A stretch of 64,000 nt of DNA from NCBI GenBank assembly GCA_002428385.1, contig DIWB01000066.1, positions 21,499-85,498 of the forward strand, read 5' to 3'. Source of the stretch: Bacteroidales bacterium UBA6117. GTDB taxonomy: Bacteria; Bacteroidota; Bacteroidia; Bacteroidales; VadinHA17. How positions within the stretch are numbered: the stretch's first letter is position 1; every line of letters starts with the position of its first letter. Positions 6,841 through 60,330 of the stretch are shown piece after piece. The position numbers and the translations under genes were made by a program. A model generated the notes under the pieces. The model was not told the DNA's origin, made no database searches, and saw only the letters and a program-made list of their open reading frames with translations.

Positions 6841-8403
6841 TCATTTCTTCTCCTCATCCTGGTACAATCCCCTGCGGGAGAGCAGATGATCGAGATCTGC
6901 AAGTCCGTAAACTACAACCGCGGTAACGACTGCTGTATGCTCCTGGTATTCAGGTATGCTTTTGGTGTAAAGATCGTTCTCAGTATGCCAGATCTCCTGG
7001 TAGCTGAAATTATATCCTTTTACATCCGGAGCCTCAAAAGCCAGGGTGGGCACTCCGTTCATCGCAAAATACGCATGATCTGAACCTCCGGCGGTCGTTG
7101 GTCTGGGCCTGGCAGGATTGGTGTTCTTTTTAAGACTGAACGGAAAATCGGGATTTATAGAGTTTAGGGGGTTGCACACTTTTTCAAAGTCATCATACAT
7201 TGATTCGGGAACCGTAAGACCGTTTGCCACTGTTGGTCCACCATCGCGATTGAAATAGTTGGAAATCCGTGGAAGCTTTTCCTTATTGGTCTCAACCCAG
7301 TGTTTTGAGCCTAGCAGGCCGAATTCCTCAGCTGCCCAAAGACAGACAAGTACTGTGCGCTTCGGTTTTCCACCGGCAGTCATTATCAGCCGGGAAGCTT
7401 CCATGGCGGGAGTTATTCCCGATCCGTCATCAACACCGCCCGTGGCAACATCAAAAGCATCAAGGTGCCCGCCCATCATCACATACTCGTCGGGGTAACG
7501 AGTTCCCTTTATCACTCCGATGACATTATGGTATACTACCGGACCTGGTTTGAAATGATTCCTGATGTCGAACTCAAGCAGGAAATACCTGCGTTCCTTC
7601 ACCATCTTTTCGATGACGGCGTACTGGTTTTCATCAAGCTTGATATCACATACAGTCGGCAGGTTTTCAAAAGTCATACCCGGAAGATTCTTCCTGTCGT
7701 AGAGAGCCCTGACAGGGACCTCAGAAGACTGGATTACCCCGAGAATTCCCGCTTCCCGCATTTCCCTGTAGAAAAGAGCCGGCTCAGTTTTCAGGGGAAT
7801 AGTCTCTTTGGGAGGTTTGTCCCTGTTTAAATAGTTCTCCCTTGTAATTTCACGGTTTATAGTGCCTACAGAGTCATTCCAGGCAATTATACTTTTCCGG
7901 ACGGAGTCAGCCTTTTCTGAAAAATCAATGGGCCATCCGTCATTTTTTCCTCCGATCAGGACCCAGGCTCCCTTAAGAGCTCCCTTCATCCTGTCAAACT
8001 CGTCCTTGTTTTTCGGTTCCATCAGGACATGGCCGCGCTGGACCCCCCTGGTGCCCGAAGTATAGGAAGGTGTGGCAAAATGAAGTATCATGCCATTTTC
8101 CGACAGCATTCTTCCAAACCATGGTCCCCTGTTAAATCCCACCGGGACTGATCCCGCCTCGTCCATTATTACATCCATTCCCCATTTCCGGAATTCGGAA
8201 GCGCACCATAAGGCAGCATTTTCATATGCATCAGAGCCGACAAGCCTTCCTCCGAACCTGTTCGAGATCACATCAAGATGCTGCATTGTCCGGTTATCTG
8301 TCTTTCCAATCTCAATGATCCGGTCAATAACCTTTCCCTGCTGAGCCCGGATTCCCGAATAGAAGAGAAGCAGGACAGCAAAAAGAGAACAATATTTCTT
8401 CAT
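6841..8403 (-). CDS. M28-family metallopeptidase, secreted
   Basis: Zinc-ligand motifs GGHLDAFDVATGGVDDGSG and WAAEEFGLLGS. Start moved to the ATG at 8403 (MKKYCSLFAVLLLF signal peptide), 6 nt below the sod stop. Confidence 0.8.
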   Translation of the reverse strand: MKKYCSLFAVLLLFYSGIRAQQGKVIDRIIEIGKTDNRTMQHLDVISNRFGGRLVGSDAYENAALWCASEFRKWGMDVIMDEAGSVPVGFNRGPWFGRMLSENGMILHFATPSYTSGTRGVQRGHVLMEPKNKDEFDRMKGALKGAWVLIGGKNDGWPIDFSEKADSVRKSIIAWNDSVGTINREITRENYLNRDKPPKETIPLKTEPALFYREMREAGILGVIQSSEVPVRALYDRKNLPGMTFENLPTVCDIKLDENQYAVIEKMVKERRYFLLEFDIRNHFKPGPVVYHNVIGVIKGTRYPDEYVMMGGHLDAFDVATGGVDDGSGITPAMEASRLIMTAGGKPKRTVLVCLWAAEEFGLLGSKHWVETNKEKLPRISNYFNRDGGPTVANGLTVPESMYDDFEKVCNPLNSINPDFPFSLKKNTNPARPRPTTAGGSDHAYFAMNGVPTLAFEAPDVKGYNFSYQEIWHTENDLYTKSIPEYQEHTAVVTAVVVYGLADLDHLLSRRGLYQDEEKK

Positions 8404-42928: not shown

Positions 42929-43014
42929 ATGTCGGCAATTACCATTTCTAAATGCAAGATAACTTAAAATGATACATTAAACTTTCTGATAACCTGCATT
43001 TAACACTATTTAAC

Positions 43015-43048
43015 AAGAAAAACCCTGTCCGCGTTCGGGCGGACAGGG
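43015..43048 (-). terminator. intrinsic-terminator-like hairpin with no upstream gene to terminate
   Basis: 10-bp perfect GC-rich stem CCCTGTCCGC/GCGGACAGGG (43023-43032 / 43039-43048) with a 6-nt loop. On the minus strand it is followed by UUUUUCUU (43015-43022). It lies 95 nt upstream of the dipeptidase ATG on the same strand. Confidence 0.5.
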
Positions 43049-43376
43049 CAGCCATGAAAAGAATGGAAAAATTGCTTTTTGGACAGTAAAAGCTTCTTTC
43101 TAAAGTAACCTACTTTAAGTATCCTGAATGTTTTTTTGTTTACGCTTATACCTTTACAATAAATTTGATCAGGTAATCAAAGTGTAAAATTAATTTATTC
43201 TTTAAAATAAAGCAACAAAATTCCGATTCAATTGCAATTTTAGGGAATCCTCTTTTAAATTAATAGGTTAACTTTCTACCCTGCCTGTAACATTTGTGGC
43301 TTTTATTCGTCTTTATTCTGACCTTTAAGAACGTCTTTTATTCGTTTCTTTACCTTTTTTAATCCTGCAAACTACA

Positions 43377-48610: not shown

Positions 48611-48667
48611 TTTCGTGAAGTTTAAAATTCAACAAATTATTTTGAGTATACTTTTTTTTCAACCCTG

Positions 48668-48675
48668 CAAATATA
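48668..48675 (-). promoter_or_regulatory. -7 box TATATTTG upstream of the HU gene
   Basis: Plus strand reads caaatata. 57 nt before the ATG at 48610. Confidence 0.35.
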
Positions 48676-48943
48676 AAAATATTATTTATTTATATTGAAT
48701 TAGTTAAAGAATAATTTTTTTCCTGAAATAATAAAATTGCCTAAAATACAATGAAATAGAAAAACCAGCCGTTCAGGTTTCCCTCTTTCGCGGTTGCCTG
48801 AAGGCTGATTGGCGGTCAAATTCCGGCCTGAGGTAAGGTGTTGAAAACATGTATATTCTGCATAAACCTTCACACTGGTTCCGATAAGCTATTTTTTATT
48901 AACTTTACGTTTTGGATATTTCTGAAATCAAAACCATAACTAT

Positions 48944-57317: not shown

Positions 57318-58682
57318 CTATTTACTTGTCACCAGAATCTCCAGCACTTCATCCACGCTCATTTTTTTCTGTTCTCCGGTCGACATTGTCTTCAGGGTTA
57401 CCTGGTTGTTTTTAATTTCCTCCTCACCAGCCAGTATTATGAACGGTATCTTCCTTGAATCGGCATACGCCATTTGCTTTTTCAGTTTGGCAGTATCGGG
57501 ATAGACTTCGGCGCTTATCCCGTTCTCAATCAGCCTGCTTCTTACCTTCAGGGCATATCCGGTTTCATACTCGCCGAAATTGACTATCATCACTTTTGTC
57601 TGCACAACATCCCTGGTAATGAACAGGTTCAGCTGGGTCATTACATCATATATCCTGTCGGCTCCGAACGATACGCCCACTCCCGAGACTCCCTCCATGC
57701 CGAAAACTCCCGTAAGGTTATCATAGCGCCCTCCGCCGCATATGCTTCCTATGCTTGCATCCCGGGACTTGACTTCAATGATGGCCCCGGTGTAATAGTT
57801 CAGTCCCCTTGCCAGTGTCAGGTCAAGTTCAGTTTCTGCAGTAAGGGTTGTACTCCCTATGTACGAAAACAGCTTTCTCATCTCCTCAATTCCCTTAATC
57901 CCTGCCTCTGAGGCAGAGAGGACCGTTTCGAGCTCCGACAGCTTTTCCTCAGTGTTTCCCTTAAGCTTCAGAATGGGCTGCAGCCTGTCAATGGCAGCAG
58001 GAGATACACCCTTACCCTTTAGCTCTTCATTTACAGCGTCTATCCCGATCTTTTCAAGTTTATCTATTGCAACCGTTATATCGGTGATCCTTCCCGATTC
58101 GCCGATTATCTCTGCAATGCCTGACAGTATCTTCCTGTTGTTTATTTTTATTACGATGGCTATCCCAAGATCCCTGAAAATATCATCTATGATCCTTATC
58201 AACTCATATTCATTCAGCAGGGAATCGCTTCCGATAACATCAGCGTCGCACTGGGTGAATTCACGGTATCTTCCCTTCTGGGGCCTGTCGGCTCTCCAGA
58301 CCGGTTGTATCTGGTACCTCTTGAACGGAAAGAAGATTTCATCACGATGCTGAACCACATAACGTGCGAATGGCACAGTGAGGTCGTACCTAAGTCCCCG
58401 TTCGCATATGTTTAATGATAGTTTATTTACCTCTCTTCCAAGAAGTTCCTCGTCGCTGACGCCTGAAAGGAAGTCGCCTGAATTAAGGATCCTGAACAGG
58501 AGCTTGTCACCCTCCTCCCCGTATTTTCCAAGAAGGGTCGACAGGTTTTCCATTGCAGGAGTCTCTATCGGCTGGTAACCGTAGTACCTGAAAACCTTTT
58601 TGATCGTCTCAAAAATGCTTTCCCGTTTCATCATCTCTTCCGGTGAAAAGTCGCGGGTTCCTTTTGGTATAGAGGGCTTCAT
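57318..58682 (-). CDS. hisS: histidine--tRNA ligase
   Basis: PKGTRDF start, class-II motifs (FRYE-type [17 protein letters not shown]). The ORF-track N-terminal extension to 58796 (GTG, HDLHDL...) is read-through of a 9-bp DNA repeat, so the ATG at 58682 is used. Confidence 0.95.
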
Positions 58683-58699
58683 GATTTTAAGATAAAAGG

Positions 58700-58707
58700 C
58701 AAAATTA
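58700..58707 (-). promoter_or_regulatory. -7 box TAATTTTG upstream of hisS
   Basis: Plus strand reads caaaatta. 17 nt before the ATG at 58682. Lies inside direct-repeat copy 1. Confidence 0.45.
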
Positions 58708-58724
58708 GGAAAAAAAAGGGGAAA

Positions 58725-58772
58725 GTCATGCAGGTCGTGCAGGTCGTGCAAGTCGTGCAAGTCGTGCAAGTC
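58725..58772. repeat. 9-bp tandem repeat, 5.3 units (GTCATGCAG GTCGTGCAG GTCGTGCAA x3 GTC)
   Basis: Read directly from the sequence. Responsible for the HDLHDLHDL artefact in the ORF track. Confidence 0.95.
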
Positions 58773-59003
58773 TTTTCCTGTTCCGAGCGGTTTCACTGGG
58801 ATGAAAAAGATAAATAACAGATTTTTAAGCTATAATAGAGATTTTTACTGCGAATATTGGTGTCCCGTCCTATGTTTTTTGGGATGGTTACACGTCGGAG
58901 GGTTGGCAGGAGCCGTAGTTCTTCAGGCTTGAGGGTAGACTTCCATTCCGATTGCGATCAGTAGATATCGGGACGATCCCACCCGGTTTAGTAGCATTAT
59001 TAT

Positions 59004-59247
59004 CAATCCAGCCTTGAAGGCTGGCCTTCCAGTAGCCCCGGTCCCATCCGGGGCGGGGGTATTTTTGCCAATCCCACCCCGGAGGGGTGGCCTTCATGCT
59101 TCATGGTTATGTTATGAAAATGTAATGTAACCTGGCTGTGGAATAAATTGTTGGAAGTCAACCCTTCCAGGGTTGTTCGTATTGTGTGGTGCATTTTTCC
59201 CGGGGTGGAACCCGGGCTACTGGAAGTCGACACCCCAGGTGTCGTTA
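59004..59247. repeat. composite imperfect palindrome made of six GC-rich stem-loops (three per arm) around an AT-rich centre
   Basis: Stem-loops: 59008-59024 (CCAGCC/GGCTGG), 59036-59053 (CCCCGG/CCGGGG), 59074-59090 (CCACCCC/GGGGTGG), 59159-59175 (CAACCC/GGGTTG), 59199-59216 (CCCGGG/CCCGGG), 59229-59243 (GACACC/GGTGTC). The core CTTCCAGTAGCCCCGG (59026-59041) is the reverse complement of 59212-59226 apart from one extra C. Confidence 0.8.
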
Positions 59248-59340
59248 AAAGATATCCTGAATGTTTGATACGTCAGAAAATTCTGGAAATATTAACCTCA
59301 TCTTGGCTTTGGGTGTCTTTCGCACAAAGCAGGAAAAAAC

Positions 59341-59415
59341 AAAAGGCAAAAGTAGGAAAAAAAAGGGGAAAGTCATGAAAGTCATGCAGGTCGTGCAAGT
59401 CGTGCAAGTCTTTTC
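59341..59415. repeat. direct repeat copy 2 (75 nt)
   Basis: AAAAGGCAAAAGTAGG-A8-GGGGAAA + GTCATGAAA GTCATGCAG GTCGTGCAA GTCGTGCAA GTC + TTTTC. Same order as copy 1. Confidence 0.85.
59347..59354 (-). promoter_or_regulatory. orphan duplicate -7 box TACTTTTG inside direct-repeat copy 2
   Basis: Plus strand reads caaaagta, in the same position within the repeat as the hisS box. It points into the 563-nt hairpin-rich spacer, not at a gene. Confidence 0.3.
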
Positions 59416-59461
59416 AATTTGAGGACCTGCAAGACCGCAAGACCTGCATGACCTGCAAGAC
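59355..59461 (-). terminator. long imperfect hairpin plus U-tract immediately after the ppk2 stop
   Basis: Arms 59424-59461 and 59372-59410 are inverted arrays of the 9-mer. By hand pairing I count ~31 pairs including G-U, with a 13-nt loop. On the minus strand the hairpin is followed by UUUCCCCUUUUUUUU. It starts 6 nt after the ppk2 stop codon. Confidence 0.55.
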
Positions 59462-59466
59462 AGTTC

Positions 59467-60330
59467 TTAATACTTCTCCGGCACGAAATTCTGCTCGGTG
59501 ATCGGAGGCCTGACGTAAGCTACATCATGGTTAAGGGGGGGCAGCCTGATTGATTTCTGAGTAAGATCCTTGTAGGGAATCATCGAAAGAAGGTGGTCGA
59601 TGCAATTCAGCCTGGCTCTCCGCTTGTCATCGGCCGGTACCACATACCAGGGCGACTGCCGTGTATCGGTATAAGAGAACATCTTGTCCTTGGCCATGGA
59701 ATACTCGACCCATTTTTCGCGCGACTCCACGTCCATCTGGCTTATCTTCCAGCGTTTTGCAGGATCCTTAATCCGGTCCTGAAAACGATTTTCCTGCTCC
59801 TTATCGCTTATGGAAAACCAGTATTTTATCAGAATTACGCCTGATCTTATCAGCATTCTTTCAAATTCGGGGCACGACCTCAGGAATTCCTCATATTCCT
59901 CATCGGTGCAGAAGCCCATGACCTTCTCAACACCTGCCCTGTTGTACCAGCTCCTGTCGAACAGCACTATCTCACCTCCTGAAGGAAGCTCAGATACATA
60001 ACGCTGGAAATACCATTGTGTTTTTTCCTTTTCGGTGGGGACGCCCAGTGCAACTATTCTGCATATTCTTGGATTCAGACAGCCTGCAATTGTCTTTATC
60101 ACACCTCCCTTGCCTGCAGCATCGCGTCCCTCGAAAATAACCACCACCTTAAGTCTGTTGGCCTTCACCCATTCCTGGAGCTTCACCAGTTCGATCTCCA
60201 GATCGCGGAGCTTCTTCAGGTACCCGGCACTCCCCAGTTTATCACGCTTTTCAGCCTTGATGTCGTGATATAGATCTTTTTTCTCAAAAACCTCAATCCT
60301 GGGTTTCTTGTCTTTTTTGTCTTTTGTCAT
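59467..60330 (-). CDS. ppk2: polyphosphate kinase 2
   Basis: 287 aa. VVIFEGRDAAGKGG Walker A and FDRSWYNR motifs. Confidence 0.9.
   Translation of the reverse strand: MTKDKKDKKPRIEVFEKKDLYHDIKAEKRDKLGSAGYLKKLRDLEIELVKLQEWVKANRLKVVVIFEGRDAAGKGGVIKTIAGCLNPRICRIVALGVPTEKEKTQWYFQRYVSELPSGGEIVLFDRSWYNRAGVEKVMGFCTDEEYEEFLRSCPEFERMLIRSGVILIKYWFSISDKEQENRFQDRIKDPAKRWKISQMDVESREKWVEYSMAKDKMFSYTDTRQSPWYVVPADDKRRARLNCIDHLLSMIPYKDLTQKSIRLPPLNHDVAYVRPPITEQNFVPEKY

Follow-up and report, generated by a model that had tools for sequence, protein, structure and literature searches.

On the minus strand of the window, by which we mean the whole 64-kb stretch of DNA analysed here, ppk2 is separated from the downstream gene hisS by an intergenic gap of 784 nt (positions 58683–59466; features in Table 1). 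It ranks first by size among about 60 inter-ORF gaps of the window, the runners-up measuring 448 and 333 nt, and its coordinates are as given in the original prediction, which had described it as a repeat- and hairpin-dense island in a housekeeping region. The repeats, arrays, hairpins and complementarities listed there are all present and above chance. Most of the gap is a non-coding, hairpin-rich insertion of ~0.57 kb that separates the ppk2 terminator from the hisS promoter and is carried by some strains only; the odd gap can thus be explained as a strain-variable repeat insertion.

The hisS start codon, ATG 58682, corresponds to residue 1 of HisS in relatives, and residues 1–453 align to relatives' HisS at 96%. 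In contigs with the long form of the gap, gene callers start hisS at GTG 58796 (492 aa), an extension that we flag here as a systematic annotation error. ORFs in the island had been considered short and implausible, and so they are: none exceeds 76 aa, and neither the five ORFs scanned nor any of the six reading frames matches Pfam. JGI gene callers do annotate ORFs of 69 and 53 aa in the island, but these lack a Pfam match or homologue, and the homologous DNA of L004 has in-frame stops. A search of 5.8 billion proteins with the 69-aa ORF returned the ORF itself alone, all carrying contigs being this very locus. We consider a small protein gene, together with the Bacteroidales-type invertible promoter (inverton) discussed below, extremely unlikely. 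Two further candidates were rejected. A SusD-like pseudogene rested on a 58-nt, 74% match to a coding region (L007:13050-13104) with an E value of 0.2 and no Pfam support in any frame, and a CTTCAAG hairpin resembling an anticodon loop is not part of a tRNA; the window has neither tRNA nor tmRNA.

Table 1. Features of the ppk2–hisS region, in window coordinates
Feature	Position	Strand	Details
hisS CDS	57318..58682	-	454 aa; Pfam tRNA-synt_His and HGTP_anticodon
hisS-proximal direct-repeat copy	58689..58777	-	-7 box TAATTTTG 58700-58707; C4T8 run 58710-58721; 3'-arm-type 9-mer array 58723-58772
9-nt tandem array	58723-58772		5.6 copies
Right terminal inverted repeat of core	58770..58789	.	GTCTTTTCCTGTTCCGAGCG on + strand
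Inserted core, ~565 nt	58776..59340	.	missing from same-species short allele and 17 related species
AT-rich core segment	58790..58889	.	20-nt tandem pair at 58807-58846
Module copy 2	58914..59021	-	homologous to ~120-nt element downstream of hisS in L004 and L016; nhmmer E = 2e-26
Fourth TGGAAGTC+hairpin unit, degenerate	58945 down to about 58925	-	
Third TGGAAGTC+hairpin unit	59031 down to 59009	-	
Module copy 1	59030..59089	-	tandem with copy 2; matches 5' half of L004/L016 element; nhmmer E = 2e-4
GTAG-tagged palindrome	59032..59053	+	GTAG-CCCCGG-TCCCAT-CCGGGG; left arm of inverted repeat I1
Pair of TGGAAGTC+hairpin units in inverted orientation	59152..59244	+	59152-59175 and 59221-59244
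Second GTAG-tagged palindrome	59199..59220	-	GTAG-CCCGGG-TTCCAC-CCCGGG; inverted relative to the first; right arm of I1
Left terminal inverted repeat of core	59321..59340	.	minus strand GTTTTTTCCTGCTTTGTGCG
ppk2-proximal direct-repeat copy (distal to hisS)	59336..59415	-	3' hairpin arm, T-run, orphan -7 box TACTTTTG 59347-59354 pointing into core
9-nt tandem array	59370-59410		4.6 copies
ppk2 terminator-like hairpin of tandem 9-mers	59372..59461	-	T-run 3' of hairpin at 59357-59364
9-nt tandem array, inverted unit	59424-59461		4.3 copies
ppk2 CDS	59467..60330	-	287 aa; Pfam PPK2, E = 2e-104

The terminator and promoter cassette

In relatives, the space between the two genes holds an ancestral-type cassette that runs from the ppk2 stop through a long hairpin of tandem 8–9-mers, a T-run, a -7 box and a short leader to the hisS ATG. 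The box follows TAnnTTTG, the -7 promoter consensus of Bacteroidetes (PMC7366714), and lies 25 nt upstream of the ATG in the window and 25–45 nt upstream of it in closer relatives. Judged at the sequence level, the flanks of the island, not its core, qualify as a putative cassette of intrinsic terminator and sigma-ABfr promoter. The long 9-mer hairpin reported earlier is highly stable, the 131-nt distal segment that holds it having a minimum free energy of −52.6 kcal/mol (z = −12.7), and about 12 close relatives have an equivalent hairpin after ppk2. Tandem arrays of 7–9-nt units fill the cassette across the clade, with units GTCGTGCA(G), GACCGCAA and CTTTTAT and a copy number that differs by species; the 9-bp arrays noted in the window proved to be three in number.

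Relative to this layout the window allele has ~647 nt extra, made up of the ~565-nt core and a second, ~80-nt copy of one cassette half (3' hairpin arm, T-run and -7 box). The direct repeat predicted at the gap edges is this duplication: positions 58689–58763 and 59336–59410 are 92% identical over 75 nt, the whole repeat extending over ~78–87 nt. Also as predicted, the promoter-like box pointing into the island on the minus strand is intact and has a twin near hisS, and both boxes (TACTTTTG and TAATTTTG) fit TAnnTTTG. The two repeat copies are of different type. The hisS-proximal one is identical to the conspecific short allele in its last 54 nt, -7 box included, and is the predicted working promoter cassette of hisS, whereas the ppk2-proximal one has the sequence type found in L005, L006 and L016. 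Since the cassette half is duplicated, ppk2 keeps a terminator and hisS keeps a promoter, and an essential gene thereby tolerates an insertion upstream of it.

Alleles, core and modules

The ppk2–hisS junction had been proposed as a place to look for an empty site, and such sites exist both in related species and within the species. Across 17 related species the spacing between the genes is 119–414 nt and the core is present in none; both repeat copies of the window align to one and the same 78-nt segment of L001. Contigs encoding an identical PPK2 protein fall into two alleles, one of 784 nt (L087, L089, L091-L093, L098 and L213) and one of 221 nt that lacks the core (L094-L097), with flanks 98.2–99.4% identical between the groups. 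The long allele is unchanged in at least six independent assemblies and is hence not an assembly artefact. Three assemblies break off within the core, at 58889, 59123 and 59220. The short-allele hairpin differs from that of the long allele, so the short allele did not arise by clean excision, and the direction of change rests on outgroup parsimony.

What, then, has been inserted? The core is bounded by 20-nt terminal inverted repeats matching at 15 of 20 positions (75%), a score reached by one of 5000 shuffles and four of 5000 random genomic pairs; their outer 8–9 nt overlap target-derived sequence. Inverted repeats around the core, together with a plus-strand TAnnTTTG match inside it (59060–59067), would speak for an inverton. 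Bacteroidales invertons, however, have near-perfect inverted repeats around a promoter and occur in both orientations within populations; we reject this candidate because the repeats are poorly matched and the core has one and the same orientation in all long-allele assemblies.

Internally, the AT-rich left part had been placed at 58801–58930. The AT-richness is borne out (GC 0.34–0.36 over 58750–58899), but the right-hand limit lay slightly too far, as the sequence from 58890 on is already GC-rich. The GC-rich stem-loop cluster is equally real, with six perfect stems of 6–7 bp within 59008–59244 against 0.9 ± 0.9 expected from 300 dinucleotide shuffles. The long-range complementarity quoted between 58931–58945 and 59152–59166 is present as a 14-nt pairing at 93% (58932–58945 with 59152–59165), next to a second one, I1, of 28 nt at 86% (59026–59053 with 59199–59226). 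Both arise from a single module repeated in inverted orientation, and the two helices would cross if formed in RNA. Within the core, TGGAAGKC+hairpin units occur in both orientations, with stems that differ yet stay complementary, and two of them are preceded by GTAG palindromes, the second of which has one compensatory C/G swap in its stem relative to the first. A perfect hairpin follows 8 of 53 TGGAAGKC sites, compared with about 1.7% for scrambled control motifs.

Part of the core has relatives elsewhere. A ~105-nt module homologue lies downstream of hisS at a synteny break in L004 and L016, the rest of the core not being covered; local alignment scores are 29.5 for module copy 2 and 22 for copy 1, against a null maximum of 17. 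A small hairpin of L004/L016 (TTCCTGCTGTC...GACAGGAA) was considered as a relative of the inverted repeats of the core, but this likeness was discarded, its score being within the noise of the local-alignment null. In L004 the terminator hairpin bears an unrelated element, 274 nt long and bounded by 11-nt terminal inverted repeats, and nested palindromic arrays occupy the same hairpin in L002 and L094. With three kinds of small insertion in close relatives, the tandem 8–9-mer terminator hairpin emerges as a hotspot of insertion and rearrangement.

A search for further copies of the island, as had been proposed, gave none in the limited sequence covered. By blastn and nhmmer, a second full copy of the core was absent from the 64 kb of the window and from ~1.1 Mb around hisS in 80 relatives; searches of PLSDB plasmids and INPHARED phages likewise gave none. 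One viral pattern scan gave no match and another gave chance 15-mer matches alone, while a metagenome scan returned two unrelated high-GC contigs, the window's own locus not being among its matches. No transposase or integrase is encoded by the 58 window ORFs scanned.

These properties also bear on a different origin, a rearrangement scar, in which duplication of or template switching at the terminator palindrome, or import of DNA from a relative by recombination, trapped ~0.56 kb of filler flanked on either side by a copy of the cassette's 3' half. Direct repeats of ~80 nt far exceed a transposon target duplication, and the difference in type between the two copies, distal and proximal, would suit such an event, as would the lack of a further core copy in the sequence searched. 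One allele has the hairpin loop in inverted form relative to the other, and the arm unit and its copy number vary among species; the terminator hairpin site therefore rearranges often. Moreover, the outer parts of the terminal inverted repeats resemble the target (GTCTTTT), suggesting joins by microhomology. Random filler, however, would not be expected to consist of repeated palindromic modules that recur at another locus of a sister species, inverted repeats at the exact core ends are unlikely by chance, and a donor locus was not found. On balance, we regard a scar as rather unlikely.

Structured RNA or passenger DNA

Could the core instead serve as RNA? The original prediction envisaged a structured RNA of ~0.5 kb transcribed from the distal box. 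In a functional version of this idea, the orphan -7 box would drive a noncoding RNA of ~0.5–0.65 kb or a long regulatory hisS leader, with the hairpins and long-range pairings as its structure. The box is intact and of consensus type, minus-strand read-through would be unblocked by terminator-like sites bar one weak match, and transcription of the island from this predicted promoter is plausible. The minus strand also folds better than its shuffles (z = −3.3), and paralogous hairpins still pair with differing stem sequences. Yet the plus strand folds at least equally well (z = −3.8), the two long-range pairings would cross and arise from a repeat unit present in inverted copies, and the module homologue lies downstream, not upstream, of hisS. 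In a consensus fold of the core with the only homologue found, compensatory changes affect 0 of 41 pairs and the covariation term is an unfavourable +5.45 kcal/mol (three sequences, two of them nearly identical). One substitution among the long-allele strains, in L089, falls in the conserved GGATTGG motif.

As had been stated, the island could not be matched to a known RNA family. Over the whole window Rfam 15 gave no match at gathering score, and at E ≤ 10 the island drew nothing but miRNA models of eukaryotes, all scoring far under gathering level and situated on the 9-mer hairpin, which amounts to generic hairpin noise; L016 is likewise without a match. The core is, finally, missing from conspecific strains with the short allele as well as from the 17 related species. 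We think a functional structured RNA unlikely and have dropped the island from the list of candidate new structured RNAs. Because only some strains of the species carry the insertion, it looks like a small insertion akin to a mobile element and not like a conserved RNA gene.

The other suggestion made for this island, a decayed insertion of MITE-like or REP-cluster type, is favoured by the empty sites, the terminal inverted repeats and the repeated palindromic modules in both orientations. We consider it fairly probable that the island is a strain-specific, non-coding insertion of MITE-like or REP-cluster-like character in the terminator and promoter cassette between ppk2 and hisS in an uncultured Bacteroidales species. 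Against this stand the single full copy of the core in the sequence searched, a homologue limited to one ~105-nt module, the imperfect inverted repeats that share their outer nucleotides with the target, direct repeats much longer than the 2–10-nt target duplication of MITEs, the lack of a transposase or integrase among the scanned ORFs and a short allele that is not a clean excision product.

Under the MITE- or REP-cluster-like reading, the core would be one repeat element, or several clustered modules of this kind, and would have arrived by transposition or by recombination at the unstable terminator palindrome. It would persist because the duplication leaves both flanking signals intact, and recombination between the two direct repeats could delete it again. 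The orphan promoter would probably yield a leader of ~650 nt reading through into hisS, the core itself having no dedicated cellular function; the insertion is probably a passenger.

Comparison with known systems

Bacterial MITEs are below about 1 kb, non-coding and bounded by terminal inverted repeats, and they come with a 2–10-nt target duplication, dispersed copies and a cognate autonomous IS; the Correia elements of Neisseria are an example. Within Bacteroidales, BrickBuilt of Porphyromonas gingivalis is present 19 times per genome and has promoter activity (PMC4596501). Like both of these, the island core is small, non-coding, strictly intergenic and strain-variable, the latter with an empty site, and it combines imperfect inverted repeats at its ends and internal repeats with a position beside promoter signals. 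Unlike MITEs, it is flanked by a duplication of ~80 nt in place of a few nucleotides, and its inverted repeats are poor. Dispersed full-length copies, as known for BrickBuilt, are absent from the sequence searched, and the core has no sequence similarity to deposited elements.

Integrative elements are flanked by attL/attR direct repeats that rebuild their target, for instance tRNA 3' ends. Similarly, direct repeats of tens of nucleotides flank the insert in the window, and one copy restores the disrupted target, here the hisS promoter. An insert of 0.57 kb without a recombinase, repeats that are 92% identical and the lack of an identifiable att core or integrase set it apart from elements of this type. 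As for the arrays, tandem TAACTGA heptamers occupy the 5' leaders of some Bacteroidetes and Cyanobacteria (PMC4679880), and the flanking cassette of the island is comparably rich in short tandem arrays of species-variable copy number. Its units are others, however, its inverted arrays form a terminator-like hairpin, and the arrays are part of the target cassette rather than of the insertion.

The remaining comparison is with REP and BIME elements. A GTAG REP is defined as a palindrome of 20–40 nt, one end of which bears an unpaired GTAG (PMC3733652). Two units of the island, starting at 59032 (+) and 59220 (−), have this published shape: they are GC-rich and ~22 nt long, have stems of 6 bp and loops of 6 nt, stand tail-to-tail and are compensatory stem variants of each other. 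Like REP/BIME arrays, the island's units are clustered in both orientations, extragenic, located just downstream of a gene and strain-variable, as is common in REP clusters (PMC3733652). A true REP/BIME cluster, in which the GTAG palindromes would be mobilised by a RAYT (Y1/HUH) transposase from another genomic locus, is nevertheless very improbable. High-copy extragenic dispersal is not seen, related units in the 64-kb window numbering two only. GTAG palindromes are not enriched there (4 observed, mean of 6 in shuffles), nor are CGTC-tagged ones, and CTTCCAGTAG occurs at 0 of 80 relatives' loci (about 1 Mb). No RAYT or other Y1 transposase is found among the 58 ORFs scanned, and the phyla in which a 2013 survey located GTAG repeats do not include Bacteroidetes (PMC3733652). 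Furthermore, the dominant signature of the island, TGGAAGKC+hairpin, is not that of a described REP family.

There is a slim chance that the core and its TGGAAGKC+hairpin and GTAG-palindrome modules represent an undescribed family of small mobile palindromic elements of uncultured Bacteroidales, which would target long terminator palindromes and generate a ~80-nt duplication of hairpin arm and promoter that rebuilds both flanking signals. If true, this would be an equivalent of REP/BIME in Bacteroidales, differing in the outcome of insertion, and the orphan promoter could turn every insertion into a new transcribed leader; if the modules are dispersed and mobile, environmental Bacteroidales would gain a new repeat family.

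The two alleles of the hisS-ppk2 gap

The gap between hisS and ppk2, here called the island, measures 784 nt, as the original prediction had it; no other gap between window ORFs is as large, the next two being 448 and 333 nt. These two (42929-43376 and 48611-48943) are ordinary AT-rich intergenic DNA with one GC-rich hairpin each and show no similarity to the island. The ~80-nt direct repeat, three 9-nt arrays, long 9-mer hairpin, AT-rich stretch and long-range complementarities ascribed to the island were all found at the positions given for them. Of about 61 ORFs in the window, 58 were scanned, and all of these are ordinary housekeeping genes, with no transposase or integrase among them; a type IX secretion sorting domain occurs in one neighbouring gene product. 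The HisS protein shares 96% identity with its counterparts in uncultured Bacteroidales MAGs, and 9.5 kb of the window is 100% identical to contigs ENA ERZ27315036 and JGI 3300002498, whose source is methanogenic hydrocarbon-degrading enrichment cultures.

Features of the hisS-ppk2 region and of the junction cassette
Feature	Position	Strand	Remarks
hisS	57318-58682	-	Pfam; start set by alignment to relatives' HisS from residue 1
Proximal repeat copy (hisS side)	58689-58763		92% identical to distal copy
Core (inserted ~565 nt)	about 58776-59340		20-nt inverted repeat ends, 15/20 positions matching
Core part 1, hisS direction			AT-rich start
Core part 2			two hairpin-GACTTCCA units, one followed by GTAG and palindrome
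Core part 3			AT-rich centre
Core part 4			two tandem forward modules
Core part 5			AT-rich tail with 20-nt tandem pair
Distal repeat copy (ppk2 side)	59336-59410
Extra promoter-like box	59347-59354		intact, directed into core
Terminator-like hairpin	59372-59461		tandem 8-9-nt units on both arms
ppk2	59467-60330	-	Pfam
Cassette part 1			long hairpin; arms are tandem 8-9-nt units, GTCGTGCA(G) vs near-complement GACC(T)GCAA
Cassette part 2			GACTTTCCCCTTTTTTTT
Cassette part 3			CCTACTTTTG, containing -7 box TAnnTTTG, 25-45 nt before ATG
Cassette part 4			short leader, T-rich and in many cases with CTTTTAT repeats

In 17 related species, ppk2 and hisS are adjacent across a gap of 119-414 nt, which in the closer relatives is a four-part cassette. 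TAnnTTTG, in its third part, is the Bacteroidetes -7 box consensus (PMC7366714). From shape and conservation, we infer that the cassette comprises a putative intrinsic terminator of ppk2 and, after it, a putative promoter of hisS.

Contigs encoding the same PPK2 protein as the window fall into two allele groups with flanks of 98.2-99.4% identity: a long allele with the 784-nt gap (L087, L089, L091-L093, L098, L213; at least six independent assemblies) and a short, core-less allele of 221 nt (L094-L097). The short allele's final 54 nt upstream of the ATG equal the window's proximal repeat copy, including TAATTTTG, and the distal copy has TACTTTTG, like the relatives' loci L005, L006 and L016. 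In a further relative (L001), a single 78-nt segment, made up of the 3' arm, the T-run and the -7 box, can be aligned with either copy, and nothing matches 58773-59340. The long allele retains the full hairpin and T-run by ppk2 and has its own promoter box at normal distance by hisS; the duplicated promoter-like box reported earlier is an extra one. Empty sites exist within the same species as well as in L001, and sequence comparison marks the window allele as an insertion.

Gene callers extend hisS in long-allele contigs to a GTG at 58796 (492 aa), covering 58683-58796 and translating the 9-mer array as LHDLHDLHD...; this call is an annotation artefact caused by the insertion.

Variability of the target hairpin

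Hairpins equivalent to that of the window lie between ppk2 and hisS in the relatives' loci L001-L007, L010, L016, L017, L049 and L063. Their unit (GTCGTGCA(G), GACCGCAA, AACTGCAT) varies among species, as does its copy number (about 4 to 18), while the arms stay roughly complementary, which amounts to a palindromic minisatellite. Since unit sequence, copy number and even loop orientation vary among species and alleles, the palindrome is unstable over evolutionary time. The long allele and L003 have CCTCAAATTGAAAAG as the 15-nt loop, the short allele and L006 its inverted form, CTTTTCAATTTGAGG (window 59404-59432 vs L094:4650-4680, L003 and L006), so that the arms evidently recombine. At L002:2341-2555 and L094:4565-4787 the site has expanded in a second way: the arms contain small nested palindromic arrays, made of CTTCGCT-type units and the complement of these units. 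In a sister species (L004:5630-5903; also L084-L086, L088, L090), a non-coding element of another kind, 274 nt long, occupies the equivalent hairpin; its ends are 11-nt inverted repeats (GACTTCTGACA / TGTCAGAAGTC), and a further inverted repeat of ~100 nt lies inside it. A second copy of this element was not found in the sampled loci, a sample too small to exclude low-copy families.

The main rival explanation, a rearrangement scar at this unstable palindrome, would account for direct repeats that are long and non-identical. The core is probably a passenger insertion.

Tandem arrays of 7-9-nt period are common in intergenic DNA of the clade (just upstream of hisS in L001, L010, L012-L014, L017 and L049; L010:3482-3608; L017:4896-4965; L008:1602-1684; several in L020; L079:5822-5901). 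The hisS leader has CTTTTAT x4-9, for example, and an Alistipes MAG has AAACTGA x11 ahead of hisS. Such arrays recall the TAACTGA leader repeats (PMC4679880).

Anatomy and homologues of the core

The end match of the core was reached by 1/5000 shuffles and 4/5000 random genomic pairs; its outer 8-9 nt look like target sequence (GTCTTTT), which leaves the precise ends uncertain. Hairpin density indeed exceeds chance, with six perfect 6-7 bp stems in the core compared to 0.9 +/- 0.9 in dinucleotide shuffles. Within the core, TGGAAGKC is directly followed by a perfect hairpin in three copies, plus one degenerate; the stems are all different and all paired (AACCC/GGGTT, GACACC/GGTGTC, CAGCC/GGCTG). 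In the window and 80 loci taken together, such a hairpin follows this motif at 8 of 53 sites, as opposed to ~1.7% for scrambled control motifs. Two GTAG-tagged palindromes are one compensatory C/G swap apart. The long-range pairings are inverted copies of core units, which in hisS direction run E, D, E', D' and would hence cross as RNA helices. A third TAnnTTTG match, TATTTTTG at 59060-59067 (+) inside the core, points toward ppk2 and may be chance, given 49 occurrences of the motif over the whole window.

The sole homologue found is a ~120-nt element that directly follows the 3' end of hisS in the MAGs L004 and L016, which are close relatives of each other and sister to the window's species. 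With nhmmer, this element matches 58914-59021 at E = 2e-26 and 59030-59089 at E = 2e-4; the local alignment scores are 29.5 and 22, where the null reaches 17 at most. The element lies at a synteny break, where hisS is no longer followed by ychF; in both MAGs (7363-7900), ychF synteny is lost exactly at the homologous module, and ~500 nt of non-coding DNA follow. Searches of the window, 80 loci, plasmids and phages gave no other match to the core. Three independent assemblies break within the core, not at its edges, at 58889 (L214), 59123 (L211) and 59220 (L099), which could reflect other module copies in those samples or low coverage. A dispersed family of hairpin-targeting mobile modules, if true, could raise the significance of the core.

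Transcription, coding potential and classification

The proposal of a ~0.5-kb structured RNA upstream of hisS fared poorly. Rfam gave no match at gathering score and generic hairpin noise only at E<=10, and a consensus fold computed from the window module and its L004 and L016 counterparts contained 0/41 compensatory pairs, with an unfavourable covariation term. Each strand folds more stably than its shuffled versions, and to much the same degree (z = -3.3 and -3.8), as expected for inverted DNA repeats. Together with absence from close relatives, these tests argue against a conserved structured RNA. Predicted transcription from the extra, orphan promoter is likely; as no convincing minus-strand terminator follows it, a long hisS leader would be the expected product. 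Island ORFs (<= 76 aa) are implausible, as had been judged: neither they nor the six reading frames gave any Pfam match, a 69-aa JGI-called ORF has no homologue besides itself, and homologous DNA in L004 contains in-frame stops.

Structure and origin of the island are largely explained. Evidence such as the empty sites favours the alternative proposal, a decayed insertion that is MITE-like or a REP-like cluster. The core resembles a MITE in size, non-coding nature and empty site, and in part in its imperfect inverted ends (whose outer part is target-like), but its direct repeats are ~80 nt rather than a short target duplication. Two core units have REP shape as defined in PMC3733652, but lack REP abundance in the window, and no RAYT gene was seen among the 58 window ORFs scanned. 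With its fit to both sets of criteria being partial, we file the core in neither family and describe it as a MITE/REP-cluster-like insertion, which behaves like, and has the appearance of, a small non-autonomous repeat element or a palindromic-unit cluster.
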